Assembly: GCA_028718785.1 (NCBI GenBank)
Contig: JAQULB010000002.1
Location: forward strand, 84,750 to 148,749
Origin: Minisyncoccota bacterium
GTDB lineage: Bacteria > Patescibacteriota > Minisyncoccia > Minisyncoccales > CG1-02-41-26
Reading direction: 5' to 3'
DNA length: 64,000 nucleotides
Notes under the pieces: model-generated
Databases searched by the model: none
What the model saw: only the letters and a program-made list of their open reading frames with translations
What the model was told of the DNA's origin: nothing
Shown: positions 9,090 to 63,673 of the stretch, piece after piece
Layout: every line of letters starts with the position of its first letter
Position numbering within the stretch: the stretch's first letter is position 1
Translations under genes and position numbers: made by a program

Positions 9090-9204
9090 ATTATTAAATT
9101 AACCTAATTAACCTAATTATACTAATTAACCTAAATAAATCCCAATGACTAATTCTCAATTGGGATTTGGGGTTTGGTTATTATTTAGAATAATTAGAAT
9201 AATT
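9090..9204 (-). repeat. ~110-bp intergenic repeat, copy 2 (inverted)
   Basis: Its reverse complement reads ...ctaattattctaaataataaccaaaccccaaatcccaattgagaattagtcattgggatttatttaggttaattagtataattaggttaattaggttaattt. The same TTGGGA-N18-TATAAT is present on the minus strand (9145-9116). Confidence 0.85.
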
Positions 9205-9206
9205 TT

Positions 9207-18830: not shown

Positions 18831-19881
18831 CAAGGGACTTGCTGTAAAAGACAATATTTTTTCTAATAAAAAATACAAGCTTTCTTATATTGTTGAAAAT
18901 AAAGATTGGATTGTGAGCCGGATTGGAGAAAAATTGGTTGAATGTTTGAGTAATTTAGGATTTAAACAAGCCAAAACAACTATAACTTCTTTGGGCTTGC
19001 GAAATCAAATAATTCATTTTGGCTCAGTGCACACTTTTTTAAAAGAAAAAGGATTTAAAAAATTTCATATTTCAAATCAAGCTGTTTTAACTTGGTTTCA
19101 TTTTGTTGCTGAAGATAAAAGAATTAAGCATCTTTTGGAAGCTCAAAAATATTTAAAAATAATCCACACATCTTGTAGTATTACAAAGCGCAATTTGATT
19201 GATTTTGGCGTAGATAAAAATAAAGTTTTGGTCATTCCTTTGGGGGTTGATTTAAATTTATTTAAAATAGTTAATGAGCAAAAAAAACAAGAAATAAAAG
19301 AGGCCCTATCTATTCCCAAAAATGTTTTTGTGATTGGTTCTTTCCAAAAAGATGGAGTTGGCTGGGGGGATGGCGGGGAGCCAAAATTAATAAAAGGGCC
19401 GGATATTTTTGTTAAAGCGGTTGAAAAGATATCAAAAAATTTTCCAGTTTTTGTTTTGTTGACAGGACCATCAAGGGGGTATATAAAAAAAGAGCTTGAA
19501 AAAAGAAATATTCCCTATAAAAGCGCGGGTTTTTTAGATGACTATAAAGAAGTTGCTTATTATTACAATGCTTTAGATTTATATATTGTGGCCTCTAGAA
19601 TCGAGGGGGGGCCTGAGGCGATCGTGGAGTCGATGGCTTGTGGAGTTCCGTTAATTTCAACAAATATGGGAATGGCCCCTGATATTATTATTGATGGAGA
19701 AAATGGATTTTTAGCTGAAGTGGAAAATGCCAGTGAAATTGCCCAAAAAGCTATGCTGGTTTTTACCCAAACAGAGCTCAAAGAAAAAATAATTAAAAGT
19801 AGCCAAGAAACAATTCAAGAATATTCTTGGGAAAAAATAGCTAAACGCTATTTTGATGAAATATATGCAAAACTCTTATAA
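18802..19881 (+). CDS. glycosyltransferase, GT-B fold (GT1/GT4-like)
   Basis: C-terminal signature ASRIEGGPEAIVESMACGVPLISTNMGMAPDIIIDGENGFL. The ATG at 18802 is preferred to the TTG at 18790. Confidence 0.8.
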   Translation: MQLSVKKIISKGLAVKDNIFSNKKYKLSYIVENKDWIVSRIGEKLVECLSNLGFKQAKTTITSLGLRNQIIHFGSVHTFLKEKGFKKFHISNQAVLTWFHFVAEDKRIKHLLEAQKYLKIIHTSCSITKRNLIDFGVDKNKVLVIPLGVDLNLFKIVNEQKKQEIKEALSIPKNVFVIGSFQKDGVGWGDGGEPKLIKGPDIFVKAVEKISKNFPVFVLLTGPSRGYIKKELEKRNIPYKSAGFLDDYKEVAYYYNALDLYIVASRIEGGPEAIVESMACGVPLISTNMGMAPDIIIDGENGFLAEVENASEIAQKAMLVFTQTELKEKIIKSSQETIQEYSWEKIAKRYFDEIYAKLL

Positions 19882-30521: not shown

Positions 30522-31490
30522 ATGCTAAACAATAAAAAAATTTTATTAACTGGCGGAGTGGGTTCTTTTGGCTCAAAGTTTGTCGAAATAGTTTTAAAAA
30601 ATTACAACCCTGCTGTTTTAAGGGTTTTTGATAATAACGAATACAAGGAAGTGGAAATGGAAAGGAAATTTAAAGACGAAAGATTAAGGTTTTTTATTGG
30701 GGATATAAGAGATTTTGACCGCTTAAAAATGGCAATGAGGGGTGTTGATATTGTGGTTCACGCGGCCGCTTTAAAGCACATTACGGTTTGTGAATATAAC
30801 CCAATAGAGGCCATAAAAACAAATATTGATGGGGCTATTAATATTGTAAAAGCCGCTTTAAGTGAAGGGGTGGAAAGGGTTATTGCCTTGAGCACTGATA
30901 AAGCTGCCTACCCGGTAAATCTTTACGGGGCAAGTAAAATGGTAATGGAAAAAATATTTATTCAGGGGAATACTTATTCAGCTAAACAAAACATTCGTTT
31001 TTCTTGCACTCGGTATGGAAATGTAGTTGGTTCGTCTGGTTCGGTTGTTCCTTTATTTAAAGAGCAGGCCAAGACCGGAAAAATCACCATAACTGATGAA
31101 AATATGACAAGGTTTTGGATAACATTGGAGCAGGGAGTAGAGTTTGTTATTAAATCTATTGAAAGAATGGAGGGAGGGGAGATATTTGTTCCCAAGATTC
31201 CTTCAATGAAAATTATGGATTTAGCCAATCTTATAGCTCCAAAAGCAAAAAAAGAAATTATTGGAAAGCGACCAGGTGAAAAGTTGCATGAAGTTTTAAT
31301 TACCAAAGAAGAATCCACTCACGCAAAAGAACACGATAATTATTATACTATTGAGCCAGATTTTCCATTCTGGCCTTATAATGAAGATAGGGGCGGAAGG
31401 GAATTGTCAGAGGGGTTTTTTTATTCAAGCGATACGAATACCCAGTGGTTAAAAGAAGAAGACCTGGGGGAGATAATTACTAATTCCTAA
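30522..31490 (+). CDS. pseB: UDP-N-acetylglucosamine 4,6-dehydratase (inverting), PseB/FlaA1 type
   Basis: Collinear with my recollection of Campylobacter PseB: KKILLTGGVGSFGS, HAAALKHI..CEYNP.EAIKTNI.GA.N, LSTDKAAYPVNLYGASK, TRYGNVVGSSGSVVP, MTRFWITLEQGV, GGEIFVPKIPSMKI.DLA, GEKLHE. Confidence 0.9.
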   Translation: MLNNKKILLTGGVGSFGSKFVEIVLKNYNPAVLRVFDNNEYKEVEMERKFKDERLRFFIGDIRDFDRLKMAMRGVDIVVHAAALKHITVCEYNPIEAIKTNIDGAINIVKAALSEGVERVIALSTDKAAYPVNLYGASKMVMEKIFIQGNTYSAKQNIRFSCTRYGNVVGSSGSVVPLFKEQAKTGKITITDENMTRFWITLEQGVEFVIKSIERMEGGEIFVPKIPSMKIMDLANLIAPKAKKEIIGKRPGEKLHEVLITKEESTHAKEHDNYYTIEPDFPFWPYNEDRGGRELSEGFFYSSDTNTQWLKEEDLGEIITNS

Positions 31491-31537
31491 TTTCTAATAA
31501 CTAAAATGGGAACAGGGATTTTTATTCATTGAGGTCT

Positions 31538-31575
31538 GGTTATTGGGATTTATTTAGGTTAATTAGGTTAATTTA
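31538..31575 (+). repeat. third (partial) copy of the intergenic repeat family seen at 1536-1648 and 9090-9204
   Basis: ggttattgggatttatttaggttaattaggttaattt shares the 27-nt core ttattgggatttatttaggttaatta with the other two copies. Confidence 0.85.
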
Positions 31576-39505: not shown

Positions 39506-40303
39506 ATGGCAAATTTCAATCCAAAAATCTCAGTGATTATGGCAACCCATAATGGGGAGCGATTTATTGAAGAGGCGATAGATAGTATTTTGGGACAGAC
39601 CTATGGGGATTTTGAATTTTTGATTATTAACGATGGTTCAACTGACTTAACTGCGGTTATGCTGGACGAGTATGCTCAAAAAGATAAGCGGGTAAAAATA
39701 ATTACAAATCCCCAATGTTTTGGCTTAACCAAGTCCCTAAATATTGCCCTTAAAAAAGCAAGAGGCGAATATATTGCTCGCCAAGATGACGATGATATCT
39801 CATCAAAGAATCGCTTTGCTTTACAGGTTGAATTTTTAGATAAAAATCAAGAAGTTTCTTTATGTGGGGCTTTGGGAGATGTTATTAATGAAAAGGGTGA
39901 AGTAATAAGGGAGAAGAATTTGGCTTTAAGTTATCGCGATATTAAAGAAAAGCTTTTGTTCAATAATCAATTCATACACTCATCTTTGATGATGCGAAAA
40001 ATAATTTTAGACAAAGAAGGTTTTTATGATGAGAAATTTAAAAAAGCTCAGGATTATGAATTAGTTTTACGATTAGGGAGAAAATACCAAATGGTTAATT
40101 TGCCAGATCGGCTGATAAAATGGAGGTTTTTGCCAAGCTCAATTTCTAACAAGAACAAAGAACAGCAAAAATTTGCTATTAAAGCAAGATGGTTGGCTAT
40201 TACAAAGTATGGATACCCAAAGATACGGGGGCTACTTCAAATTATCTTAAGGGTTGCGTGGTTATATGTACCCAAGAAAATAAAGATGGCACGATATCAT
40301 TAA
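39506..40303 (+). CDS. glycosyltransferase family 2
   Basis: ISVIMATHNGERFIEEAIDSILGQTYGDFEFLIINDGSTD and RQDDDDIS (DxD). Confidence 0.85.
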   Translation: MANFNPKISVIMATHNGERFIEEAIDSILGQTYGDFEFLIINDGSTDLTAVMLDEYAQKDKRVKIITNPQCFGLTKSLNIALKKARGEYIARQDDDDISSKNRFALQVEFLDKNQEVSLCGALGDVINEKGEVIREKNLALSYRDIKEKLLFNNQFIHSSLMMRKIILDKEGFYDEKFKKAQDYELVLRLGRKYQMVNLPDRLIKWRFLPSSISNKNKEQQKFAIKARWLAITKYGYPKIRGLLQIILRVAWLYVPKKIKMARYH

Positions 40304-40418
40304 TTTTTAATTTCCAATTTTTAATTTTTAAATAATTTTTAATGTCTTAATGTTTAAAAATTTAGATTTGAGATTTATTTAAAAATTACAAAATTAAAAA
40401 TTCAAAAATTGTTTTACT

Positions 40419-41562: not shown

Positions 41563-42873
41563 CTATTCGGTTTTGAAGAATAACAAAAAGGTTTTAAGCA
41601 AAATGCCCAGATCCAGTAAAAAGGATCTATTTTTTATATAGTATAAATCGTATTGAAATTTCTCATGGCTTTCCTCTTTGCTTCTGGCGTATTGGATAAA
41701 TCGCGTTTGCGCCCAGCCCGTAAACCCTGGTTTTATTATATGGCGTAGATGATAATGGGGAATTTCTTTTTCTAATTGTTTTACAAATTCTGGGCGTTCG
41801 GGTCGGGGGCCGGTTAAAGAAAGCTCGCCCTTTAAAACATTAAGCATTTGAGGAAATTCATCAATGTGGAACTTTTTTAAAACTGCGCCAACTGCTGTAA
41901 CTCGAGGGTCTTTTTTTTCAGCCCACACCGCTCCTTTTTTTTCAGCGTTCACAACCATTGACCTAAATTTAAAAATTAAAAAGTTTTTTCTGTTTTTTCC
42001 AACTCTTTCTTGTTTATAAAAAATTGGACCCCTGTCATCAAGCTTTATGGCAATTGCTGATATAAGCCAAATAGGGGAGGTTATAATAATTAAAACAACA
42101 GCTATAATAAAATCAGTTAGGCGTTTAATTTTGTCGTAGGTGGACTTTTCGTTTTCTGACAGGTTTTTTAAAAACCAGGCCTGGTTCACAAAGTCAATAG
42201 GTATTTTACCCAAAATTTCTTCATAAGCTTTATCTAAAGATAAAAAAGTGGTTTTTAGCCCCAAGCATCCATAAAGCTGTCCTGCTAAAGCGGAATTTTT
42301 TTCAATATTTTCACTAATAACCAAAACGCTAATTTTATATTTTTTAATTTGGGCTGAGAGAGCGATTTTTTCACTTAAAAAACCAATTAATTTATAACCA
42401 AGCTGGGGCTGGCTTTTTATTTCATTTAACAAACTTAAAGCTAACGGCGCTTTGCCCAAAAAAGCTATGTTAGCTCGATATACTGATGAAAAAAGAGCGT
42501 AAAAGAGTTTGCGCCATAAGAATATAAAAGTAGCGAAAATCCCAATATCTAAAAGCAGATTTGTTTTTGGAGTAATGCCGAAAAAAGGTATTAAGTAAAA
42601 GAAAGCTAAAGCAACAATCAAGCAAACTGAAAAGCATTGGAGCATTCTTTTTGGCAATTCTCCTTTTGGGCCAATTATCTTTAAATCGTAAAGTCCAAAA
42701 ATATAAAAGAATATAATCCAAACAAAATAAATAATGCCAAAAGGTATTAAGTGTTGATTTAAAATATTGGAATTAAAGTTGTTCAAATAGCGGATATTTA
42801 AAGCTGAAAGCAAAGCTAAAAAGGCCAATACAATATCGCCAATAGTTAAAATAAATTGTCGTAGTTTAATCAT
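41563..42873 (-). CDS. polyprenyl-phosphate glycosyl-1-phosphate transferase (bacterial sugar transferase, WbaP/WcaJ-like priming enzyme)
   Basis: 436 aa. N-terminal TM helices and a C-terminal catalytic domain PIFYKQERVGKNRKNFLIFKFRSMVVNAEK...DPRVTAVGAVLKKFHIDEFPQMLNVLKGELSLTGPRPERPEF. Confidence 0.85.
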   Translation of the reverse strand: MIKLRQFILTIGDIVLAFLALLSALNIRYLNNFNSNILNQHLIPFGIIYFVWIIFFYIFGLYDLKIIGPKGELPKRMLQCFSVCLIVALAFFYLIPFFGITPKTNLLLDIGIFATFIFLWRKLFYALFSSVYRANIAFLGKAPLALSLLNEIKSQPQLGYKLIGFLSEKIALSAQIKKYKISVLVISENIEKNSALAGQLYGCLGLKTTFLSLDKAYEEILGKIPIDFVNQAWFLKNLSENEKSTYDKIKRLTDFIIAVVLIIITSPIWLISAIAIKLDDRGPIFYKQERVGKNRKNFLIFKFRSMVVNAEKKGAVWAEKKDPRVTAVGAVLKKFHIDEFPQMLNVLKGELSLTGPRPERPEFVKQLEKEIPHYHLRHIIKPGFTGWAQTRFIQYARSKEESHEKFQYDLYYIKNRSFLLDLGILLKTFLLFFKTE

Positions 42874-42880
42874 GTCTTAG

Positions 42881-43138
42881 AAGTCGTTAATAAGCGAAGC
42901 GAATTTACGAATTCTTAGATCCTGTTAAACGCTCCTCTCAGAGAGCGTTTAATCGGGATATTCCTTAAGTCGTTAATAAGCGAAGCGAATTTACGAATTC
43001 TTAGATCCTGTTAAACGCTCCTCTCAAAGAGCGTTTAATCGGGATATTCCTTAAGTCGTTAATAAGCGAAGCGAATTTACGAGTTCTTACACCCCGTTAA
43101 ACGCAACCTCAAGGAGCTGTTTAGCTGGGGTATTATTT
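42881..43138. repeat. three tandem 86-bp repeats, each with an internal hairpin
   Basis: Units at 42881-42966 and 42967-43052 differ at 1 of 86 positions. The third (43053-~43138) is diverged in its distal half. Each contains ttaaacgctc-N8-gagcgtttaa (e.g. 42925-42952) extended by atcc/ggat. Confidence 0.9.
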
Positions 43139-43213: not shown

Positions 43214-45295
43214 ATGGGAAAACAATCGCGAATTAAAAAAGAAAGGAAAACGCAAATTCAAGAGGGAGAAAAAAGCCCAAAAGAGGAAAAGCAAATTTCT
43301 TTTGGCTGGGAAAAGTTTTTAAAAACAATAATTTTTTGGGGCGCTTCTATCGCGCTTTTAACCCCCTTAATTTACAGCTCTAAATATTATTTTCCATTTG
43401 TGGGTCCCAAAAGTTTATATTTTATGTTTTTTTGCCAAGTAATATTTTTTGCTTGGCTAATTTTGGCTCTTTATGATAAAAAATATCGACCCAAAATGAA
43501 TACTGTAATTTTAGCTTTTGGCTTGTTTTTATTTTTTATGACTGTGTCAAGCGTTTTCGGCGTTGATCCCTCTAGATCTTTTTGGTCTAAGTTTGAAAGA
43601 ATGTCAGGGCTTTTGATGTGGCTTAATATGGCTGGGTTTATTTTGGCTGTTTCTTCAACTTTAAAAAATGTTGATGAGTGGAAAAAAATATTTTTTGTTT
43701 CTTTGGGCGTGGCTTTTTTTGTTTCTTTGTTTGGCATATTGGAAAGATTGGGGGTAAAAGCAGTAACATTTTCTGATAGAATGGGGGTTACTTTGGGGAA
43801 TACTTCTTTTTTAGGGTCTTATTTAGTTTTTAATTTTTTTATTGCTGTTTATTTATTTTTTCAGGAAAAGAAAAATTTAATTTTGAAAATTTCTTTAGGG
43901 TTTGTTGCGGTTTTGGCGGTGGTGGCTATCTTTCTTCAAGAAGCTAGGGCGGCTTTGGGGGTTTGTTTTGGAGGTGTTTTATTGATCGGTGTTTTATACT
44001 TAGCTTTTAAGGTAAAAAACAAGGGGGTTAGATTAGGCGGTAAAGTGGCTCTTGTTTTGGGGTCGTTGGCGGTTGTTGTTTCGGTTATTTTGGTATATTT
44101 GCCCAATAATCCTGTCCATAACTTATTTGGCAAAATGGCCACTGAAGGAAGGTTTGCTAATTGGGAAATTGCCCAAAAAGGATTTTTGGAAAGGCCATTT
44201 TTTGGCTGGGGACCTGAAACATACGATATTTTATTTCCAAAATATTTTAACCCTTGCTTGTTTACACAAAAATGCGGAGGAGAGTTTTGGTTTGACAGAA
44301 CCCATAATATTATTTTAGACACATTAGTTGGGACAGGAGCTTTTGGTTTTTTAGCGTATTTGGGAATATTTTTTGCTTTAATATGGGTTTTGCGAAAAAA
44401 ATATTTTAAAGACAAAACAATTGATTTTTGGACATTTGCTGTTTTTATTGCTTTGCCCGTGGCTTATTTTATCCAAAACCTAACTGTTTTTGATATGGTG
44501 GGCAGTTTAATGATGTTTTCTTTAGTTCTGGCTTTTGTTGCCTTTTTAGCTGTTTGGGGTAGCCAGAAAAAAAATGAAAATCGTTATATTCCAAAAAGCA
44601 AATGGCCCATGGTTATGGCTTTGATTTTTGGATTTTTAGTTATTTATTATTTTTCGTATAAACCTTGGCAATTGGACAAGGGCGTTATTTTGGCAGTTCA
44701 AAACCAATATCAAAACGACAGATTACAGGCCTATCAAAAGTGTTTAATGACTTCTTCTTTGGGAAAATATCAAATAACGGATTTTTTCTCTGATTTTTCT
44801 CAGAACATTGTTCAAAACAACCTTGAAAAAGCCCCAAAAGAAGATTTAATTAGAGAAATTGAGGCAGTGGCGAAACTTTCCGAGGAAAGAAAGAAGGACT
44901 CTCCGCTTGATTATCGCATTACTTTAAAATTAGCTCAGATTTACAATACATATGTTTTATTAGACCCTTCAAAAATTGATTTAGCTGAGCAATATGGCAA
45001 AGAAGCAATGAGTCAGTCCCCAAATAATCAGCAGTCATATTGGGTTTTGGCGCAAACAGAGCTTTATAAACAAAACATTGAAGAGGCCAATAAATTGGCT
45101 CAACAGGCAATTGATTTGGAGCCGGGTGTTTTAAAGTCATACCAAATAGCGTCTCAAGTGGCAGCAATTTCTGGCAATCAAGAAAAGGCCATAGAGATTG
45201 CGAAAAAAGCGGTTGAGATAAATCCGGACTGGTTGAAAGATTTTAGCATATTGCCTCAATCACAAGCCACAAGCGCAGAGTCATTGACAAAATAA
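43214..45295 (+). CDS. O-antigen ligase/Wzy_C-domain membrane protein with C-terminal TPR repeats
   Basis: 693 aa with ~12 TM helices. A periplasmic-type loop (RFANWEIAQKGFLERPFFGWGPETYD) is typical of WaaL/PglL/PilO-family proteins. C-terminal ~170 aa are TPR-like (YWVLAQTELYKQNIEEANKLAQQAIDLEP...). Confidence 0.78.
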   Translation: MGKQSRIKKERKTQIQEGEKSPKEEKQISFGWEKFLKTIIFWGASIALLTPLIYSSKYYFPFVGPKSLYFMFFCQVIFFAWLILALYDKKYRPKMNTVILAFGLFLFFMTVSSVFGVDPSRSFWSKFERMSGLLMWLNMAGFILAVSSTLKNVDEWKKIFFVSLGVAFFVSLFGILERLGVKAVTFSDRMGVTLGNTSFLGSYLVFNFFIAVYLFFQEKKNLILKISLGFVAVLAVVAIFLQEARAALGVCFGGVLLIGVLYLAFKVKNKGVRLGGKVALVLGSLAVVVSVILVYLPNNPVHNLFGKMATEGRFANWEIAQKGFLERPFFGWGPETYDILFPKYFNPCLFTQKCGGEFWFDRTHNIILDTLVGTGAFGFLAYLGIFFALIWVLRKKYFKDKTIDFWTFAVFIALPVAYFIQNLTVFDMVGSLMMFSLVLAFVAFLAVWGSQKKNENRYIPKSKWPMVMALIFGFLVIYYFSYKPWQLDKGVILAVQNQYQNDRLQAYQKCLMTSSLGKYQITDFFSDFSQNIVQNNLEKAPKEDLIREIEAVAKLSEERKKDSPLDYRITLKLAQIYNTYVLLDPSKIDLAEQYGKEAMSQSPNNQQSYWVLAQTELYKQNIEEANKLAQQAIDLEPGVLKSYQIASQVAAISGNQEKAIEIAKKAVEINPDWLKDFSILPQSQATSAESLTK

Positions 45296-45347
45296 CATTT
45301 ATTTGCTATCATACAAGCATAAAGTGAGCGAACTTCAAATGTGGCTG

Positions 45348-45372
45348 AAACCCCCTTTCGGGGGTTTTTGCT
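45348..45372 (+). terminator. intrinsic terminator
   Basis: aaaccccc-tttc-gggggttt followed by ttgctttc. Confidence 0.8.
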
Positions 45373-45436
45373 TTCTTATGGTAGAATTTTGACAAATTAT
45401 TTATTCGCTAAAGGCGTTTGAAATTTTACAACGGGG

Positions 45437-45466
45437 TTGCTCCACTCTATTTATTAGTGTTATACT
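45437..45466 (+). promoter_or_regulatory. sigma-70-type promoter with extended -10
   Basis: TTGCTC (45437-45442), 18-nt spacer ending in TGt, TATACT (45461-45466). Confidence 0.5.
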
Positions 45467-45558
45467 AAAATTGGATGGGAGCTGGCACTCACTTTATAAC
45501 ATTTGGAGTATAACCCTCCCGTCCATTGGCAAAAAACTATTTTTATAGTTTTTTGCCA

Positions 45559-46458
45559 ATGGACAATAAAACGAACAAAATGCAAAAGAATATTTTGTTA
45601 AAGGATTTAACCACTTTTAAGATTGGAGGTGTGGCAAAATATTATTGCCAGGCCAGTAGCCAAGAAGAAATTATTGAGGCCGTAAAATGGGTGCAAGAAA
45701 AAGGCGCGCCGTTTTTTGTTTTAGGCGGGGGAAGCAATGTGTTGATAGGCGATAAAAAATATAAAGGATTAGTGATACAAATAAAAAATCAAATCTTAAA
45801 AATCAAAAACACAGATCAAAACTCAAAAATTATAGAAGTGGGGGCAGGGGTTCCTTTGGGAAAGTTGGTTGGAGTTGCTTTGCAAGAGGGATTAACTGGA
45901 ATGGAGTGGGCAATGGGAATTCCCGGCACAGCGGGAGGGGCTGTTTATGGGAACACGGGAGCGTTTGGCCAGTCAATGGGAGATATAGTAGAAGAGGTGG
46001 AAGCAATAGATATATCAAATATCAAATATCAAATATCAAATATCAAAAAGGAAGGTTGCAAGTTTGGATATAGAGATTCTATTTTTAAAAGAAGTAAAAA
46101 CTTAATAATTTTGTCAGTTAAAATAAAATTGCAAAACGGAGAAAAAGCAGAAATTGAAAACAAAATGAAAGAATTTTTTCAAAAGAAAAAACAAACTCAG
46201 CCCTTAGAGTTTTTTTCTGCTGGATCAATTTTTAAAAATGGCGAAAATTATAAAGCCGCGGACTTGATTGAAAAAGTTGGGCTAAAAGGCAAACGTATTG
46301 GAGGGGTGGAAGTTTCTCAAAAACACAGCAATTTTATTGTTAATAACGGCCGGGGCAAAGCCAGAGATGTAAAAAAATTGATTGATTTAATTAAAAAACA
46401 AGTCAAGAAAAAATTTAATATGGAACTTCAAGAGGAGATCCAATATCTTGGGTTTTAA
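45559..46458 (+). CDS. murB: UDP-N-acetylenolpyruvoylglucosamine reductase
   Basis: LKDLTTFKIGGVAKYY, FVLGGGSNVLI, GIPGTAGGAVYGNTGAFG, FGYRDSIF, SAGSIFKN, GGVEVSQKHSNFIVN. Start is the ATG at 45559 or 45580; the ORF-track start at 45526 is a TTG inside a hairpin. Confidence 0.85.
   Translation: MDNKTNKMQKNILLKDLTTFKIGGVAKYYCQASSQEEIIEAVKWVQEKGAPFFVLGGGSNVLIGDKKYKGLVIQIKNQILKIKNTDQNSKIIEVGAGVPLGKLVGVALQEGLTGMEWAMGIPGTAGGAVYGNTGAFGQSMGDIVEEVEAIDISNIKYQISNIKKEGCKFGYRDSIFKRSKNLIILSVKIKLQNGEKAEIENKMKEFFQKKKQTQPLEFFSAGSIFKNGENYKAADLIEKVGLKGKRIGGVEVSQKHSNFIVNNGRGKARDVKKLIDLIKKQVKKKFNMELQEEIQYLGF
46022..46056 (+). repeat. five perfect tandem copies of the heptamer ATATCAA inside murB
   Basis: 46022-46056 reads (atatcaa)x5. 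It is translated as ISNIKYQISNIK. Confidence 0.95.
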
Positions 46459-46484
46459 AAATTATAAAATTAAAAATTTTATAC

Positions 46485-46523
46485 TTATCCACATGTTGAC
46501 ACATTGCGTTAAAGTGCGAAAAT
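46485..46523 (+). promoter_or_regulatory. promoter with abutting perfect DnaA-box 9-mer
   Basis: TTATCCACA (46485-46493), tg, TTGACA (46496-46501), 16-nt spacer ending in TGc, GAAAAT (46518-46523). Confidence 0.5.
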
Positions 46524-46572
46524 AAATAAAGGATGGCAGCATAGTCGACTGTCAAAAAAAGATACTAAAACG

Positions 46573-46617
46573 ATGCCAGCAAAAAAAAAGAAGAAAGCAA
46601 CAAAAAAGAAGAAATAG
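46573..46617 (+). CDS. possible 14-aa lysine-rich micropeptide (MPAKKKKKATKKKK)
   Basis: ATG...TAG lies between the promoter at 46485-46523 and the terminator at 46638-46696. No clear SD. It could equally be a non-coding RNA. Confidence 0.3.
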   Translation: MPAKKKKKATKKKK

Positions 46618-46637
46618 TTTTTCTTTTGTTGAAACAG

Positions 46638-46696
46638 ATCCCCGCCACGCCAGAGCTTAAAATTTTTTGAGCTTTCGTGTGGCGGGGATTTTCGTT
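46638..46696 (+). terminator. intrinsic terminator (long-loop hairpin)
   Basis: 11-bp GC-rich stem atccccgccac (46638-46648) / gtggcggggat (46679-46689), followed by tttcgttt. Confidence 0.6.
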
Positions 46697-46784
46697 TGAC
46701 TGGCAGTTGTTTTTTAAGTTTTAGTATGCTAACAATAAAGCAGGTTTTGATTATTAAGTTTTAATCTTAAAAAGGAGAAATAAG

Positions 46785-47195
46785 ATGCAACCAGATATAG
46801 CGATTGCTTTGAAAGGGCTAATGTTTATAGTAATTCCATTTGTTCTATTTTTTGTTTTTATAGCAAAGGTTTATCCTAGGATAGTTGACAGGAGAGAGTT
46901 CAAAGATTTCTTTGGGTTTACTTATAATTGTTTTAATGTTGAACAATTATTAAAGGAAAGAACCCTGTTTCTTGAAGGAGAATTTCGCACCCTGTTGATG
47001 AGCACAATTGAAATTTTTAAACCCTTAGCTGATATGGATATTTCTAGTAGCGATACAGATTTTTTGCTGGCTATGTGGAATGAGCAAACAAAAATAGTTC
47101 AAAGAAAAGCAAGAGAACTTGAGAGAGCCAGGACCCTTGCTGAAAAATTTGGTTTCAAAAATGAAAAATTCTTAGTAAGCACATCGTTGGATTAA
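46785..47195 (+). CDS. hypothetical membrane-anchored protein
   Basis: 136 aa. One N-terminal TM helix (IALKGLMFIVIPFVLFFVFIA). Preceded by an AAAGGAG SD. No recognisable family. Confidence 0.55.
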   Translation: MQPDIAIALKGLMFIVIPFVLFFVFIAKVYPRIVDRREFKDFFGFTYNCFNVEQLLKERTLFLEGEFRTLLMSTIEIFKPLADMDISSSDTDFLLAMWNEQTKIVQRKARELERARTLAEKFGFKNEKFLVSTSLD

Positions 47196-47207
47196 AAATA
47201 AAATAAT

Positions 47208-47246
47208 AAAAAGCGCGCAAGGAGGTGAAACCAGCGCGCTTTTTTA
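47208..47246 (+). terminator. intrinsic terminator
   Basis: aaaaagcgcgc ... gcgcgcttttt with a T-run. Confidence 0.8.
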
Positions 47247-47277
47247 ATGGTTTTATGGTAAAATGTTATTAAAATAA

Positions 47278-47345
47278 ACAAAAACTCCGCCTTTCGGCGG
47301 GTTCCTGCGAGTTTAACTCGAAACAAAATCTGGATTGTCACCCAT
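47278..47345 (-). ncRNA. predicted ~68-nt small RNA, antisense-complementary to the adjacent tRNA-like gene
   Basis: Delimited by a near-consensus promoter (47350-47377) and a CCGCC-GAAA-GGCGG + U-run terminator (47300-47271, minus strand). Nucleotides 47342-47329 (GGUGACAAUCCAGA) are complementary to the RNA encoded at 47453-47440. Contains an inner hairpin CGAGU-UAA-ACUCG. Confidence 0.5.
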
Positions 47346-47349
47346 ATTT

Positions 47350-47396
47350 AGTATATCATTAAGTATCTTTTTGTCAATGTAGAAAATTGTGGATAA
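47350..47396 (-). promoter_or_regulatory. near-consensus sigma-70 promoter with upstream DnaA-box 9-mer (minus strand)
   Basis: Minus strand reads TTATCCACA (47396-47388), 10 nt, TTGACA (47377-47372), 16-nt spacer ending in TGa, TATACT (47355-47350). Confidence 0.65.
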
Positions 47397-47406
47397 AGAA
47401 ATATGT

Positions 47407-47474
47407 TGGAGGTACGGGGAGTTGAACCCCGAAACTCTAGGTGACAATCCAGAGTTTGCTACCGAGCTACCCCC
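47407..47474 (-). tRNA. atypical 68-nt tRNA-like gene (anticodon region contains GUC/UGU; identity unresolved)
   Basis: Minus strand reads GGGGGTA GCTCGGTAGC AAACTCTGGATTGTCACCTAGAGTTT CGGGG-TTCAACT-CCCCG TACCTCC A. It has a 7-bp acceptor stem and a canonical T arm. The D arm is truncated to 3 bp with a 4-nt loop, there is no U8, and the anticodon arm has an 8-nt loop or a bulged U. A possible TGaTATAAT -10 lies at 47494-47486 (minus). Confidence 0.55.
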
Positions 47475-47501
47475 AACACAATCGAATTATATCATAAACA
47501 T

Positions 47502-50090
47502 ATGGGATTATTAAGTAAAATTTTAGGGGATCCAACAGAAAAGTTTTTAAAAAAGGCCTGGGTGGATGTTGAAAAAATAAATTTTTTTGAAGAAAATTTT
47601 TCAAAATTTTCCGCTGAAGAATTAAAGCAAAAAACTTTTCAATTTAAAGAACGATTAAGCAAAGGGGAAACATTAGATGATATTTTGCCCGAGGCCTTTG
47701 CTTTGGTTAGAGAAGGAGCAAAAAGAACTCTTAATCAAAGGCATTTTGATGTTCAGCTTATTGGGGCTATGGTTTTGCATCAAGGGAAAATTGCGGAAAT
47801 GAAAACCGGAGAAGGAAAAACCTTAACTTCAACTTTGGCTGTTTATTTAAACGCATTAGGGGATGAGGGAGTTCATGTGGTGACAGTTAATGATTATTTA
47901 GCTAAAAGGGATTCGGTTTGGATGGGGCAGATATATAATATACTTGGTTTAAGTGTGGGGTGTATCGTTAATGACGCTTCGTTTTTATACGATGAGGAAT
48001 ACGAGCAAAAAATTTCTAATAACGAATTTCTAATTTCTAAACAAATTCAAAAATCAAATGTCAAAAATCAAAAAGATGAGGAAAGGGACATAAAGGGCAG
48101 TTTTAAAGTGGAGCAAAGTTTTTTAAAACCATGTCAAAGAAAAGAGGCCTACACAGCTGACATTACCTATGGCACAAACAATGAATTTGGCTTTGATTAT
48201 TTAAGAGATAATTTAGTTTTTAATTTAGAGGATAAAGTTCAGAGGGATTTTAATTTTGCTATAGTAGATGAAATTGACTCAATTTTAATTGATGAGGCCA
48301 GAACACCTCTTATTATTTCTCAGCCCGACCTTGAATCATCGGTTTTGTATAAAGATTTTTCAAAAATTGTTCCCAAATTAAAAGAGCCAGTTGATTACAA
48401 TTTAGATGAAAAATTAAAAACTGCCTCATTAACCGAAGAAGGCATAAATAAGATTGAAAATATTTTAGGCGTGGAAAATATATATGAAAGCAAGGGCATA
48501 AAATATTTGCATTTTTTGGAGCAGTCCTTGAGAGCAATGGTTTTTTTTCAAAAAGACAAGGATTATATTGTTAAAGACGGGCAAATTATTATTATTGATG
48601 AATTTACAGGCAGAATGTTGCCTGGTCGACGATACTCTGGGGGCTTACACCAAGCCATTGAGGCCAAAGAAAAAGTGGAGGTTCAGCCAGAATCAAAAAT
48701 TTTAGCCACCATTACTTTTCAAAATTATTTTCGGTTTTATAAAAAACTATCCGGAATGACAGGCACGGCTTTAAGTTCAGCAGAGGAATTTGACAAGGTT
48801 TATAAGTTAATGGTTGTGGCTGTGCCCACAAACAAAAAAATGATAAGACGGGACTTGCCTGATTTAATTTACAAAACCGAAAAAGCCAAGTTTAAGGCCG
48901 TGGTGGAAATAATAAAAGCCAAGCAAAAAATTGGCCAGCCCGTATTGGTGGGCACAAAATCAGTTGAAAAAAATGAGTATTTGAAACGGCTTTTGGAGCG
49001 AGAGGGAGTAAGGCATGAAATTTTAAACGCTAAAAACCACGAACGAGAAGGAGAAATCATTGCTCAAGCTGGTAAAAAGGGTGCGGTAACTGTGGCCACA
49101 AATATGGCTGGAAGAGGAGTGGATATTATGCTTGGCGGAGTGCCCCCAAGCAGAATTAAATATCAAGTATCAAATATTAAAAACAACGAAGAAGAGATTA
49201 TAAGCGAACAGTACAAACAATGGGAAAAACAAAGAGATGAAATTTTAGCTTTGGGCGGGCTTTGCGTTGTTGGCACAGAAAGGCATGAAGCCAGAAGAAT
49301 TGACGACCAGTTAAGGGGCAGGGCAGGCAGGCAGGGAGATCCGGGCTCGTCTCAATTTTTTGTTTCTTTGGAAGATGATTTAATGAGGATTTTTGGAGGA
49401 GATAGATTAAAAGCGGTTATGAACACCTTAAAAGTAGATGAAAATCAACCCATTCAAGCGGGGATAATCTCTAGGGCTATTGAAAAAGCTCAAATTAGGG
49501 TTGAGGGATTTAATTTTGACGGAAGAAAGCATGTTTTAGAGTATGATGATGTTATTTCAAAGCACAGAAACGCTATTTATTCAAAAAGAGAAGACATTTT
49601 GAAGCAAAACTATGACGAGTTAAAAGAAAATGTTTTATTAATCTTAAAAAAAGAGCTTGAAAAAATTACAAGCATTTACTCAAATAGCGACACCTCTCAA
49701 ACAGAAGCTATTATTGAAGAAATTAAAACTATTTTTCCCTTAAGCGTTCAAGACATTGAAAGAGTTAAAGTTTTAAAAGATGGAGAGGAGATATTGAAAT
49801 TTTTAAGCGAAGCGTTAGAGAGGTTTTATTTGGCCAAAGAAGCCCAAGACGGGAAAGAAAGCTTTCAAAAACTTTTAAAATTTATTTGTTTGAGAACAAT
49901 TGATTTTTTCTGGACAGAACATTTGGTTTCTTTGGATTACTTAAAAGAGTCGGTTGGGTTAAGGGCCTATGGGGGAAGAGATCCGTTAGTTGAATATAAA
50001 TCCGAAAGCCACAAGCTTTTTAGAGAATTGCAAGATTCTATCAATGCTCAAATTTCAAGAACCGCTTTAAAGGTTTCAATGAACAAGTAA
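47502..50090 (+). CDS. secA: preprotein translocase ATPase SecA
   Basis: 862 aa. MKTGEGKTLT Walker A, ITYGTNNEFGFDYLRDN, VDEIDSILIDEARTPLIIS, TGMTGTA, TNMAGRGVDI, GTERHEARRIDDQLRGRAGRQGDPGSS. Confidence 0.95.
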   Translation: MGLLSKILGDPTEKFLKKAWVDVEKINFFEENFSKFSAEELKQKTFQFKERLSKGETLDDILPEAFALVREGAKRTLNQRHFDVQLIGAMVLHQGKIAEMKTGEGKTLTSTLAVYLNALGDEGVHVVTVNDYLAKRDSVWMGQIYNILGLSVGCIVNDASFLYDEEYEQKISNNEFLISKQIQKSNVKNQKDEERDIKGSFKVEQSFLKPCQRKEAYTADITYGTNNEFGFDYLRDNLVFNLEDKVQRDFNFAIVDEIDSILIDEARTPLIISQPDLESSVLYKDFSKIVPKLKEPVDYNLDEKLKTASLTEEGINKIENILGVENIYESKGIKYLHFLEQSLRAMVFFQKDKDYIVKDGQIIIIDEFTGRMLPGRRYSGGLHQAIEAKEKVEVQPESKILATITFQNYFRFYKKLSGMTGTALSSAEEFDKVYKLMVVAVPTNKKMIRRDLPDLIYKTEKAKFKAVVEIIKAKQKIGQPVLVGTKSVEKNEYLKRLLEREGVRHEILNAKNHEREGEIIAQAGKKGAVTVATNMAGRGVDIMLGGVPPSRIKYQVSNIKNNEEEIISEQYKQWEKQRDEILALGGLCVVGTERHEARRIDDQLRGRAGRQGDPGSSQFFVSLEDDLMRIFGGDRLKAVMNTLKVDENQPIQAGIISRAIEKAQIRVEGFNFDGRKHVLEYDDVISKHRNAIYSKREDILKQNYDELKENVLLILKKELEKITSIYSNSDTSQTEAIIEEIKTIFPLSVQDIERVKVLKDGEEILKFLSEALERFYLAKEAQDGKESFQKLLKFICLRTIDFFWTEHLVSLDYLKESVGLRAYGGRDPLVEYKSESHKLFRELQDSINAQISRTALKVSMNK

Positions 50091-57676: not shown

Positions 57677-58984
57677 ATGGATCCCGTTTATTTTGCTCAA
57701 ATTACAAAAGGAATATTAGGAATTTTGTGGTCAGTTTTTAAAGTTTGGTGGTGGCTTCCTTTGCCTTTTATTATTTTTCCAAAGTTAAAGTTTATATACG
57801 AATGGTATATGAACGATGTGTATTGGGGAAAAGCTAATTGGATGGTTTTGGAGGTTAAAATACCCAAAGAAATTGACAGACCATTAAAAGCAATGGAGCA
57901 GGTTATCTCTAACTTTTGGACTTTGTATGATCCTCCTGATTTTAAGGAAAGATGGTTTGAGGGAAAGTATTTGTTAAATTTTTCTTTGGAAATTGCTTCA
58001 ATTGATGGAAAAATTCATTTTTATATTTATTTACCCGGAGCTATGAGAAAAGCGTTTGAGTCAGCTATTTATTCTCAGTACCCAGAAGTGGAAATTGAGC
58101 AAGTAATGGATTATACTCGCATGGTTCCCCAAGACATTCCTAATAAGGACTGGGATATGTGGGCTTGCAACTTTAAGATGATGAAAAAAAGGTGCTATCC
58201 CATTAAAACTTATCTTAGTTTTTTTGAACCAACTCAAGAAATTGAAGAAGAAAGAAGAGTTGACCCACTAGCTGTTCTTTTAGAAGGAATGTCGCGTTTA
58301 AGACCCGGGGAGCAATTATGGTTTCAAGTTATATTAAAGCCAATTTTGTTAGATAGTGAAAACGATTGGAAGGTGGAAGGCCGGGAGGAATTATCCAAAC
58401 TTTTAAAAAGGCCTTTGCCAGTAAAAGACAATAAAACAATTGTGGGAGAGGCGTATAATCTTTTGGTTCATGACAAAGAGCCATTTAAAGGTGAAGAAAA
58501 AGTTGAGCCCTTATTGCCCCCTGAACTGCATTTAAGCCCGGGTGAAAGAGAAATAGTGCAAGGCATTGAAAATAAAATGTCAAAACATGGTTTTGAAACA
58601 ATAATAAGAATGATTCTTTTGGGGAAAAAGGATGTTTTTTTCAAGCCCAATTTGCGCTTGGTTTTAAATTTATCAAGCGGTGTTTCCACTATAAATTTAA
58701 ACGGCTTAAAGCCATTTATGACAACCAAGGTGGTTGCTCCAGCTTTTTACAGGGATAAAAGGCTTTATATTAAAAAGAGAAAACTTTTTAGAAGATATTT
58801 AAGCAGGTGGGCTTATTTTTTCCCAAAAACTGTGCCCGGACAAAGTCATGGCCACTTAGTTTTAAATCCAGAGGAAATAGCCACTTTGTGGCATTTTCCA
58901 GGCAAAGCAGCCATGCCAGCGGCCGGATTGGAAACAATTGAATCAAAGAAAGCTGGCCCACCAGCCAATCTACCCATTGGGTAA
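57677..58984 (+). CDS. hypothetical membrane protein (partner of the downstream VirD4/TraD-like ATPase)
   Basis: 435 aa. An N-terminal Trp-rich hydrophobic segment, one or two TM helices (ILGILWSVFKVWWWLPLPFIIFP), then a large soluble domain. No family recognised. Confidence 0.5.
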   Translation: MDPVYFAQITKGILGILWSVFKVWWWLPLPFIIFPKLKFIYEWYMNDVYWGKANWMVLEVKIPKEIDRPLKAMEQVISNFWTLYDPPDFKERWFEGKYLLNFSLEIASIDGKIHFYIYLPGAMRKAFESAIYSQYPEVEIEQVMDYTRMVPQDIPNKDWDMWACNFKMMKKRCYPIKTYLSFFEPTQEIEEERRVDPLAVLLEGMSRLRPGEQLWFQVILKPILLDSENDWKVEGREELSKLLKRPLPVKDNKTIVGEAYNLLVHDKEPFKGEEKVEPLLPPELHLSPGEREIVQGIENKMSKHGFETIIRMILLGKKDVFFKPNLRLVLNLSSGVSTINLNGLKPFMTTKVVAPAFYRDKRLYIKKRKLFRRYLSRWAYFFPKTVPGQSHGHLVLNPEEIATLWHFPGKAAMPAAGLETIESKKAGPPANLPIG

Positions 58985-59118
58985 ATCTTAATATCTAAAT
59001 CCTAAATCCTAAACAAATCCAAATGACCAAAACCCAAAATCCAAAACAAAAAAGACAAACTGAGCCATTTTGGATTTAAAACATTTTGGCTTTGAGTTTA
59101 TTTAGAGTTTAAACATCT

Positions 59119-62269: not shown

Positions 62270-62405
62270 CAGCCTTAAACCCAAAATCCAAATAACAAAT
62301 GTCAAATCAAACCAAAAATCCAAATAACCAAAAAGGTTTTTTCTTGGGTTTTGAATTTTGAATTTGAATTGAAATTTGGATCTTGAAATTTGGATTTTTT
62401 TATTT

Positions 62406-63563: not shown

Positions 63564-63673
63564 AATATTAAATATAAAATTGCAAATGTCTGTGTTTAAA
63601 ACAAAATTTAAAATATATTTAAAATTTAAGATGTAAATTTTAGATTTGCAATTTAAGATTTGAGATTAATTTT

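Follow-up and report, generated by a model that had tools for sequence, protein, structure and literature searches.

Translated heptanucleotide arrays in the murB gene of a Paceibacteria genome and their probable concerted evolution

A perfect tandem array of the heptanucleotide ATATCAA is nested inside the murB open reading frame (ORF) of a Minisyncoccota bacterium. The DNA analyzed, called the window here, is a stretch of 64,000 nucleotides (contig JAQULB010000002.1, positions 84,750 to 148,749) of a metagenome-assembled genome (MAG). The window had been read before by a model from its letters and ORF translations (the sequence-only reading), and the present analysis followed up what was noticed there. 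The gene and the array are located as follows.

45559..46458, plus strand: murB (UDP-N-acetylenolpyruvoylglucosamine reductase, type II), identified by Pfam, a match to 1hsk, and an AlphaFold2 (AF2) model
46012..46047, plus strand: site 2 array, perfect (ATATCAA)x5.1, found by Tandem Repeats Finder (TRF) with period 7, 100% match, and score 72

MurB is an essential, single-copy housekeeping enzyme. Only one murB gene was found at the locus, and the gene order Wzy_C - murB - x - secA - secD - secF is kept in all relatives. The Pfam domains FAD_binding_4 (87.3 bits with a cut-off of 26.4, E=4.5e-33) and MurB_C (113.8 bits with a cut-off of 27) both exceed their cut-offs, and the protein matches S. 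aureus MurB (1hsk) with E=6e-49, so that the gene call made from the letters was right. An AF2 model based on 34 homologues has a predicted local distance difference test score (pLDDT) of 89.8, and its top Foldseek match is again S. aureus MurB 1hsk (TM 0.90, rmsd 2.2, 292 columns). FAD_binding_4 (PCMH) is followed by MurB_C, and the three-domain fold lacks the type-I loop, as in type II enzymes. Residues C160, F162, Y164, S167, G215, E285, and E286 are invariant in the 34 homologues, while R165 and S216 are conserved in at least 90% of them. The conserved positions (FGYRDS with its Arg, the Ser of GS, and the C-terminal Glu) align to 1hsk, and their catalytic roles are those established in the MurB literature. 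A 100% identical protein, MDD5738628.1 (P0001), is named UDP-N-acetylmuramate dehydrogenase and belongs to Ca. Pacebacteria. The ORF 45559/45580-46458 is a genuine type-II murB of a Paceibacteria MAG of the candidate phyla radiation (CPR). Residues are numbered here from the ATG at 45580, which gives 292 aa; the publicly annotated protein of 299 aa begins at 45559. Between the Wzy_C gene and murB, 44 nt (45521-45564) form a perfect palindrome, GTCCATTGGCAAAAAACTAT..ATAGTTTTTTGCCAATGGAC, that extends over the start of murB as annotated. A similar hairpin is kept in relatives and is read as AKNHLNGFLPMD in over-extended ORFs.

The site 2 array consists of five ATATCAA units at 46012-46046 and one additional A. 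The sequence-only reading had placed it at 46022-46056, which is 10 nt too high; that interval covers about 3.6 units and overshoots the array by 10 nt. Its translation, DISNIKYQISNIKK, was nevertheless correct. The array is read as (D)ISNIKYQISNIK(K) and codes for I145-K156. An exact lag-7 run of at least 14 nt is expected 0.02 times per window under a third-order Markov model, and the run at site 2 is 29 nt long. Among synonymous re-codings of the site 2 peptide drawn from the codon usage of the window, only a fraction of 3e-6 reach the observed run, and the array twice uses ATC, a rare codon that makes up 7% of those for Ile. Thus, the repeat is a property of the DNA and not a by-product of the peptide.

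In the AF2 model, the array makes up part of a hairpin, namely its turn (residues 145-150) and its second strand (151-156); the first strand consists of residues 137-144. The pLDDT of the hairpin is 86-93, and the catalytic FGYRDS motif, with C160, F162, Y164, and R165, comes right after it. The segment had been described as a variable loop between domains. It does lie between the Pfam matches (residues 20-144 and 191-289) and it does vary among relatives, but it is modelled as a confident hairpin. Nor does the idea of an inserted segment hold, because relatives have the same length there; the hairpin region of S. aureus MurB is 3 aa shorter. According to the model, the site 2 segment is a structured, sequence-variable part of the MurB fold rather than an inserted floppy loop. 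The folding energy of the array equals that of shuffled sequences (z=0.03), no inverted-repeat hairpin exists in it, and a search of 45200-47600 against Rfam gave nothing credible. A known RNA family or a structured RNA was rejected on these results. An antisense gene or a complementary copy was also rejected; the reverse frames hold stop codons, and no minus-strand copy of either unit family is present in the 64 kb.

How can a non-triplet repeat be accommodated in an essential ORF? Since 7 is coprime to 3, three units (21 nt) code for one 7-residue peptide period, and every reading frame of the ATATCAA array gives the same cyclic peptide (ISNIKYQ). A 7-residue period fits a strand plus a turn, be it in a hairpin or a beta-meander, so that an array can replace ordinary sequence at unchanged length and hairpins tolerate arrays. 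The sequence-only reading had pointed out that gain or loss of units shifts the frame unless three units are involved, and this was borne out by simulated arrays of 2 to 8 units. With 3, 4, 6, or 7 units, a stop codon appears 3-22 codons downstream, ahead of the catalytic YR, Ser, and Glu, while the frame is kept with 2 or 8 units. The units themselves also bear the mark of stop codons in relatives. An (AATTTTA)n array would read TAA, and a C is found at exactly that position. An (AAAATTG)n array would give TGA, and the relative L020 (L numbers denote loci, P numbers proteins) has AAAATTG AAAATTG TAAATTG twice, with a T making TGT in every third unit. This 21-nt super-period would imply a three-unit duplication in the past.

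Is the same array found in other members of the clade? I gathered murB DNA from about 20 relatives. The site 2 segments read as follows.

Window, L005, L010, and L019: (ATATCAA)5
L006: AATTTTA AATTTCA AATTTTA AATTTTA
L007: AATTTTA AATTTAA AATTTTA AGTTTTA
L009: AATTTTA AATTTCA AATTTCA AATTTTA
L017: AATTTTC type
L001, L013, and L014: AAGAATY / AGGAATT
L020: (AAGATTT)4.6

Apart from the ATATCAA carriers, ten relatives have a segment of equal length at site 2, and its heptamer (AATTTYA, AAGAATY, AATTTTC, and others) differs by lineage. The species represented by L005, L010, and L019 has a murB gene 79% identical in DNA to that of the window; the flanks differ right up to the edges of the array, and the array is identical. 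Perfect repeat identity had been taken as a sign of recent expansion, but an identical array with diverged flanks in three assemblies of a species at this distance does not support that view. The copy number is five in all four assemblies (a small sample), and a 2- or 8-unit array was not found in any relative examined. An invariant number together with an ordinary conserved segment had been named as what would speak against the earlier proposal. The number is indeed invariant in the four assemblies, but the segment is not ordinary conserved sequence, being replaced wholesale between lineages.

Of the approximately 20 murB loci examined, none is out of frame, and a single one has a nonsense point change. 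In the JGI assembly L019, which belongs to the sister species, a TTA-to-TGA point change at 2085-2090 divides murB into ORFs of 165 and 140 aa; the change lies two codons ahead of an intact 5-unit array. It may reflect a true nonsense allele or an error of sequencing, or it may be a case of recoding. The split gene (P0121/P0122) was considered as proof of slippage and rejected, since the array is intact.

In L002, L011, and L012, a palindromic insert stands at site 2 in place of the heptamer array. These in-frame inserts at the site-2 hairpin resemble repetitive extragenic palindromic (REP) sequences or miniature inverted-repeat transposable elements (MITEs) and are located at 10412-10470 of L002, 2588-2640 of L011, and 5454-5510 of L012. 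One example is GCGGAGCCCAGCCCTCC..GGAGGGCTGGGCTCCGC, which is read as AQPSKKLELSSGEGWAPQ; others are read as 'LRHPERSEGSLNRDSSAALSGLRMTDAV', 'QTSPELGAQAFRRFA', and 'PVVKGFTLTTGQAI'. The proteins P0005, P0014, P0016, and P0018 have such inserts at this hairpin. The L002 SecA likewise carries a palindromic insert ('VTLSEAKGLGRDSSLGAQND'), at the first of the two secA insertion sites described below. Judging from these sequences, several kinds of repeat DNA appear to settle preferentially in the murB and secA loops.

Site 2 is not the only place of heptamers in and around murB. Two other arrays were found in the window by TRF.

45779..45830, plus strand: site 1 array, degenerate (AAAAATC/AAATCAA)x7.6, 67% match
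46455..46478, plus strand: site 3 array, non-coding (TTAAAAA)x3.3, beginning at the murB stop codon

Site 1 (residues ~68-85) codes for IKNQILKIKNTDQNSK, which forms a three-strand beta-meander in the AF2 model (strands 61-68, 73-77, and 82-88). At this site, relatives have perfect or near-perfect arrays of (GAATCAG)4.6, (AAGATTC)5.3, (AAAGTTC)4.9, (CAGGAAT)5.0, and (CAAGATA)4.4. Further site 1 arrays are (AAAATTG)5.6, (AAAATTC)5.6, and (AAATACT)5.4, and even a 44%-identity relative has (GAAGYAA)~7 there. The site 3 array lies upstream of a conserved TTATCCACA-TG-TTGACA motif, and L001, L005, L006, L007, L021, and L022 have arrays at the same place. A site 4 array, coding for KNQELGIKNQELLEKFP, is found in the long-form loop of long-form MurBs. 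Counted from the murB start, the arrays have offsets of approximately 0 (L006 and L012), +205, +425, and +640; these steps of about 215 nt may be a coincidence.

The TRF survey covered 220.5 kb, consisting of the window and 16 loci, at a score of at least 40. Period 7 is the commonest period with 35 arrays, of which 27 lie in murB or within 40 nt of it, although murB makes up 7% of the surveyed DNA. In the 120 closest homologues of MurB, exact repeats number 52 at lag 7 versus 0-11 at any other lag. Lag-7 repeats are present in about 45 of these 120 proteins versus 7 of 150 diverse representatives with 40-58% identity. Thus, the arrays are limited to a clade, and a phylum-wide feature was rejected. 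No lag-7 excess was found in about 50 other proteins of the window. It seems, from the sequences compared so far, that the heptamer feature belongs to one clade and essentially to one gene. A general heptamer habit of the genome was accepted only in part; the intergenic DNA has a lag-7 signal (autocorrelation of 0.336 versus about 0.30), yet the other proteins have no lag-7 excess.

How the arrays evolve was seen in comparisons of related species. Between the window and L005, none of the 13 identical-residue codons of site 2 differ synonymously versus 32% in the rest of murB, and site 2 is the sole 13-codon window of the gene without a difference. The same is true of site 1 between L001 and L014 (0 of 13 versus 36% elsewhere). 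In contrast, the imperfect site 2 arrays of L001 and L014 differ synonymously at 4 of 13 codons, which equals the background. The DNA identity thus goes beyond the needs of the protein, as the fraction of re-codings given above and the two counts of zero in 13 indicate. In a perfect array, every base of the unit passes through the three codon positions from copy to copy, so a homogenized heptamer has no silent positions and perfect arrays stay frozen. The stasis fits a homogenization that would purge single-unit variants.

Arrays can also be replaced as a whole. The murB genes of L014 and L017 are 86% identical, and their flanks match right up to the arrays, but each unit of site 1 differs at 4 of 7 positions and site 2 differs too. 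The arrays of L014 are those of L001, whose gene is 76% identical, and sites 1, 2, and 4 of L014 are all of the ARGAATY type. Units are more alike within an array and a lineage than between lineages at the homologous site. The distance between the units of different sites is 2.05 within a genome versus 2.63 between genomes, with p=0.008 in a permutation test that ignores phylogeny. Another protein, P0127 (cluster of P0013), has an N-terminal half of the L014 type, arrays included, and a C-terminal half of the L017 type. This hybrid suggests recombination between the L014 and L017 lineages, as far as the two halves tell.

The same unit families were found in secA, two genes downstream of murB. 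The sequence-only reading had noticed a degenerate version of the ATATCAA array at 49160-49180 coding for IKYQVSNIK in SecA, and both the coordinates and the peptide are correct. The secA gene and its insertions are as follows.

47502..50090, plus strand: secA (862 aa), with Pfam SecA_DEAD, SecA_PP_bind, P-loop_SecA, and SecA_SW
48006..48074, plus strand: secA insertion 1 (about QKISNNEFLISKQIQKSNVKNQ), from TRF and alignments
49152..49223, plus strand: secA insertion 2 (RIKYQVSNIKNNEEEIISEQYKQW, 24 aa), after the GRGVDIMLGG motif

The SecA protein is approximately 50-90 aa longer than those of most relatives because of these lineage-specific insertions. Insertion 1 contains (AATTTCT)4.3 at 48011-48040 and (AAAATCA)4.6 at 48043-48074 and is absent in L001, L006, L007, L009, L012, and L013. 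Within the window, its closest local match is to murB, and the AAAATCA family, which is of the murB site-1 type, occurs in the 64 kb only in murB and insertion 1. Insertion 2 is absent from six relatives and begins with the degenerate ATATCAA GTATCAA ATATTAA (49158-49181 by TRF). The 21-nt sequence at 49160-49180, ATATCAAGTATCAAATATTAA, has 2 mismatches to (ATATCAA)3, where 0.02 matches are expected at 3 or fewer mismatches. This array is the best match to murB site 2 in the 64 kb, with 26/29 identity including the 3′ edge. The position of insertion 2 is presumably the variable (VAR) region in nucleotide-binding domain 2 of SecA, from GRGxDI to GGLxVIGTERHE, where lengths vary among bacteria. 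Unlike ordinary VAR variation, insertion 2 starts with murB-family heptamers and is found in the window and the sister species only.

The sister species (L010) also carries insertions at both of these secA positions. Its insertion 1 contains a perfect (AAAGTCA)x4, which is the unit of its murB site 1 and occurs in the L010 locus only at those two places. Its insertion 2 contains (ACAAATA)~5, which equals ATAACAA and is 1 nt from ATATCAA. Thus, the claim that the same DNA element has been translated in two unrelated proteins was not only supported but extended, by the best match, by the absence of the insertion from six relatives, and by L010. By these unit comparisons, the murB and secA arrays appear to track each other within a genome.

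Which known repeats are comparable? In coding simple sequence repeats (SSRs) of prokaryotes, an indel load is the expected cost within a general framework (PMC3315296). The present arrays are like coding SSRs in that a perfect array lies in an ORF, with units identical within and differing between lineages, and in that perfect and interrupted arrays behave differently. They are unlike them in that the unit is 7 nt (neither 1-6 nt nor a multiple of 3) and the host is a single-copy essential enzyme. Moreover, the murB arrays lie at homologous positions with constant length in many species, and several of them share unit families within the gene and with a neighbouring gene. In Haemophilus influenzae, 7-nt repeats in the promoters of the adhesin genes hmw1A and hmw2A vary in number between isolates and tune expression (PMC8262952). 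The unit length and slippage as the expected mode of mutation are shared with these repeats, but the murB arrays are translated, their copy number is invariant in the data, and their host is a housekeeping gene. The closest kind is a coding SSR under concerted evolution, which the locus behaves like; unlike a contingency locus, it showed no variation in copy number, and its host is a housekeeping gene. Literature searches found no published description of heptamer arrays in Patescibacteria or murB.

Two other families of repeats can be compared. Mazel et al. in 1990 reportedly described short tandemly repeated repetitive (STRR) heptanucleotides of the cyanobacteria Anabaena, Nostoc, and Calothrix, said to contain G+C (e.g., CCCCAGT) and to be mostly intergenic with many copies. 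They resemble the present arrays as tandem heptamers with no established function, and perhaps also as a dispersed family within a genome. The murB-family arrays differ from them in that they are translated, lie mainly in one gene, and consist of A-rich units that seem unrelated to those of the STRR. Ogata et al. in 2000 are said to have described the Rickettsia palindromic elements (RPE), hairpin-forming selfish elements of approximately 100-150 bp lying in frame in essential genes. Like the RPE, repeat DNA is translated here as surface segments of housekeeping proteins, and the two secA insertions fit this pattern. However, the heptamer arrays measure 25-50 nt, lack a palindromic structure, and in murB take the place of sequence instead of adding to it. 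The palindromic in-frame inserts of relatives occupy the same murB and secA loops.

I consider it probable that the site 2 array is a member of an old family of coding heptanucleotide microsatellites in concerted evolution. The best reading is that the family has long been seated at fixed, structurally tolerant beta-hairpin positions of murB in one clade of Paceibacteria. Replication slippage, together with short-range template switching or gene conversion, would keep the units of an array identical. Only three-unit changes would survive, because one- or two-unit changes truncate MurB, and units that would make a stop codon in any phase would carry a fixed interruption. Perfect arrays, having no silent positions once homogenized, would be frozen for long periods. 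Occasionally, an array would be overwritten wholesale, either by copying from another array in the gene or genome or by short-tract recombination between species, and the overwriting process may also have seeded or rewritten the two secA insertions 2-3 kb downstream. The limits on the arrays would be the reading frame, the avoidance of stop codons, and the length of the hairpin. The anatomy of the arrays, their pattern across species, the limits set by frame and stop codons, the missing synonymous change, and the unit families common to several sites are shown by the data above. That slippage, conversion, and template switching are the underlying molecular processes, and that the arrays have no regulatory role, I infer.

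Several points weigh against this explanation. A purely mutational model leaves unexplained why 27 of 35 arrays are concentrated at murB while about 50 other proteins have no excess. The persistence of arrays down to approximately 50% MurB identity is long for a microsatellite, and the arrays themselves could be under selection. Relatives have no 2- or 8-unit variant, so three-unit slippage is deduced from the super-period of L020 only, and the lengths of site 1 differ by 15 nt among lineages, which is not a whole number of three-unit steps. The sharing of units between murB and secA could in part be the sorting of ancestral mixed arrays, since each holds minority units of the other type. Finally, the mosaic of arrays could have arisen from short-tract recombination between species instead of copying within a genome.

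This last possibility, a mosaic made by short-tract homologous recombination between co-occurring relatives, is rather unlikely as an alternative in its own right. It would account for the L014 arrays equal to those of L001 amid flanks like those of L017, for the hybrid appearance of P0127, and for the identical array with diverged flanks in the window and L005. However, the edges of the arrays would have to coincide exactly with the ends of several separate tracts, each of approximately 40-50 nt, and this alternative leaves the unit sharing between sites of one genome and the secA-murB tracking unaccounted for. Exchange and within-genome copying are not mutually exclusive. The arrays might instead be cis-acting elements that a small RNA or a protein able to read heptamers would recognize in the DNA or RNA, with units co-evolving with such a trans-acting partner. 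Arrays kept at fixed positions while their letters change, the strong specificity for murB, the long persistence, the non-coding array right after the murB stop codon, the co-variation of murB and secA units within a genome, the perfect arrays without synonymous change, and the spacing of about 215 nt are in line with such a role. Mutation alone does not account for the specificity, the persistence, the non-coding array, or the spacing of the first arrays. On the other hand, the array has no RNA structure beyond that of shuffles and no Rfam family, neither a complementary copy of the unit in the 64 kb nor a candidate partner was found, and no loss of the gene is visible in several relatives whose arrays are degenerate or have a palindromic insert in their place. 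Homogenization plus coding constraints also account for every observation, and a cis-acting role is quite unlikely.

A contingency locus, in which the array would switch murB on and off or change its length by slipped-strand mispairing in the manner of the heptanucleotide and other SSRs of Haemophilus and Neisseria, is very improbable. The array is perfect and non-triplet, a one-unit change does shift the frame, and heptanucleotide SSR switches are known from H. influenzae hmw1A (PMC8262952). What a contingency locus requires, variation in unit number or out-of-frame alleles, was not found in the four assemblies with ATATCAA or in the approximately 20 loci; the murB genes are in frame, the four assemblies have five units each, the split of L019 is a point change, and the array length is conserved across species. 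As is generally known, murB is a single-copy housekeeping gene, which is not a dispensable host where a switch would be adaptive. It is just as hard to believe that selection at the protein level alone favoured a 7-residue peptide and that the DNA period came from biased codons in an AT-rich genome. It is true that the arrays code for the strand-turn units of beta-hairpins and that lag-7 peptide repeats are common in the MurB clade, but the rarity of such re-codings, the rare codon used twice, the DNA-perfect arrays in several species, and the non-coding array contradict it. An artefact of assembly or sequencing has a practically negligible chance. Short repeats are open to mis-assembly in metagenomes, yet the same 5-unit array was recovered in an NCBI MAG and, from different samples, in three JGI contigs, the ORFs are all intact, and the 36-nt array is shorter than a sequencing read.

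An unlikely extension of concerted evolution is that the arrays form a maintained system, a co-evolving genome-internal family at fixed and roughly evenly spaced murB positions that is able to spread to neighbours such as secA. In one version, a trans-acting factor could read or copy heptamer arrays. In the other, the arrays could be selected for the single-step rewriting of surface hairpins, for example under a MurB-binding inhibitor. One substitution spread through the unit changes three residues per 7-residue period with the frame and the hairpin geometry kept.

Non-triplet repeats are usually regarded as on/off switches where the gene is dispensable and, where it is essential, as hazards that selection excludes. 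If the explanation by concerted evolution is correct, a 7-nt family in an essential enzyme codes for folded beta-hairpins throughout a clade and is frozen for long and then replaced wholesale, which would be a clean natural case of concerted evolution acting on translated, frame-coprime repeats. Repeats could then yield lineage-specific protein segments and insertions, as in secA, without loss of function. Annotators should be aware that K/N/I/Q stretches of low complexity in the housekeeping proteins of CPR bacteria can be structural elements encoded by repeats and not errors.

Several other observations were made around the locus. Right after murB lies a unit of approximately 210 nt (46483-46700) that is conserved in nine species and has no Rfam match. 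It holds CTTATCCACATGTTGACAC, in which a perfect DnaA-box consensus, TTATCCACA, abuts a -35-like TTGACA. An invariant GTGCGAAAATAAATAAAGGATG.CAGCATAGTCGACTGTC follows, and then a tiny Lys-rich ORF (MPAKKKKKATKKKK, ~46575-46619). The last part, at ~46641-46695, is a hairpin terminator whose stem has changed in a compensatory way from species to species. A replication origin or DnaA array was considered because of the perfect box and was rejected, since the cumulative GC skew rises monotonically across the window and the box occurs in it only once. The TTATCCACA box sits against the -35-like TTGACA of what looks like a small transcription unit downstream of murB.

Intergenic period-7 arrays lie at 40300-40410, (TTAATTT)8.6, at 62349-62398, (TTTTGAA)7.6, and at 63617-63667, (ATTTAAA)6.6. 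A dispersed intergenic element with the core GGTTATTGGGATTTATTTAGG has four copies versus zero expected (1534-1650, 9097-9205, 31474-31575, and 58982-59053). The tandem arrays of 7-9 nt on its two sides are short and oppositely oriented (CTAATTA.. / ..TAATTAG), and the element accounts for several of the period-7 and period-9 arrays outside murB. In the distant relative L004, intergenic Shine-Dalgarno-like heptamers, (TAAGGAG)x7.4 with 93% match, are found at 19597-19648. An 86-nt tandem repeat of 2.8 copies with 93% identity (42881-43123) lies in the window between a minus-strand gene (41563-42873) and the Wzy_C gene.

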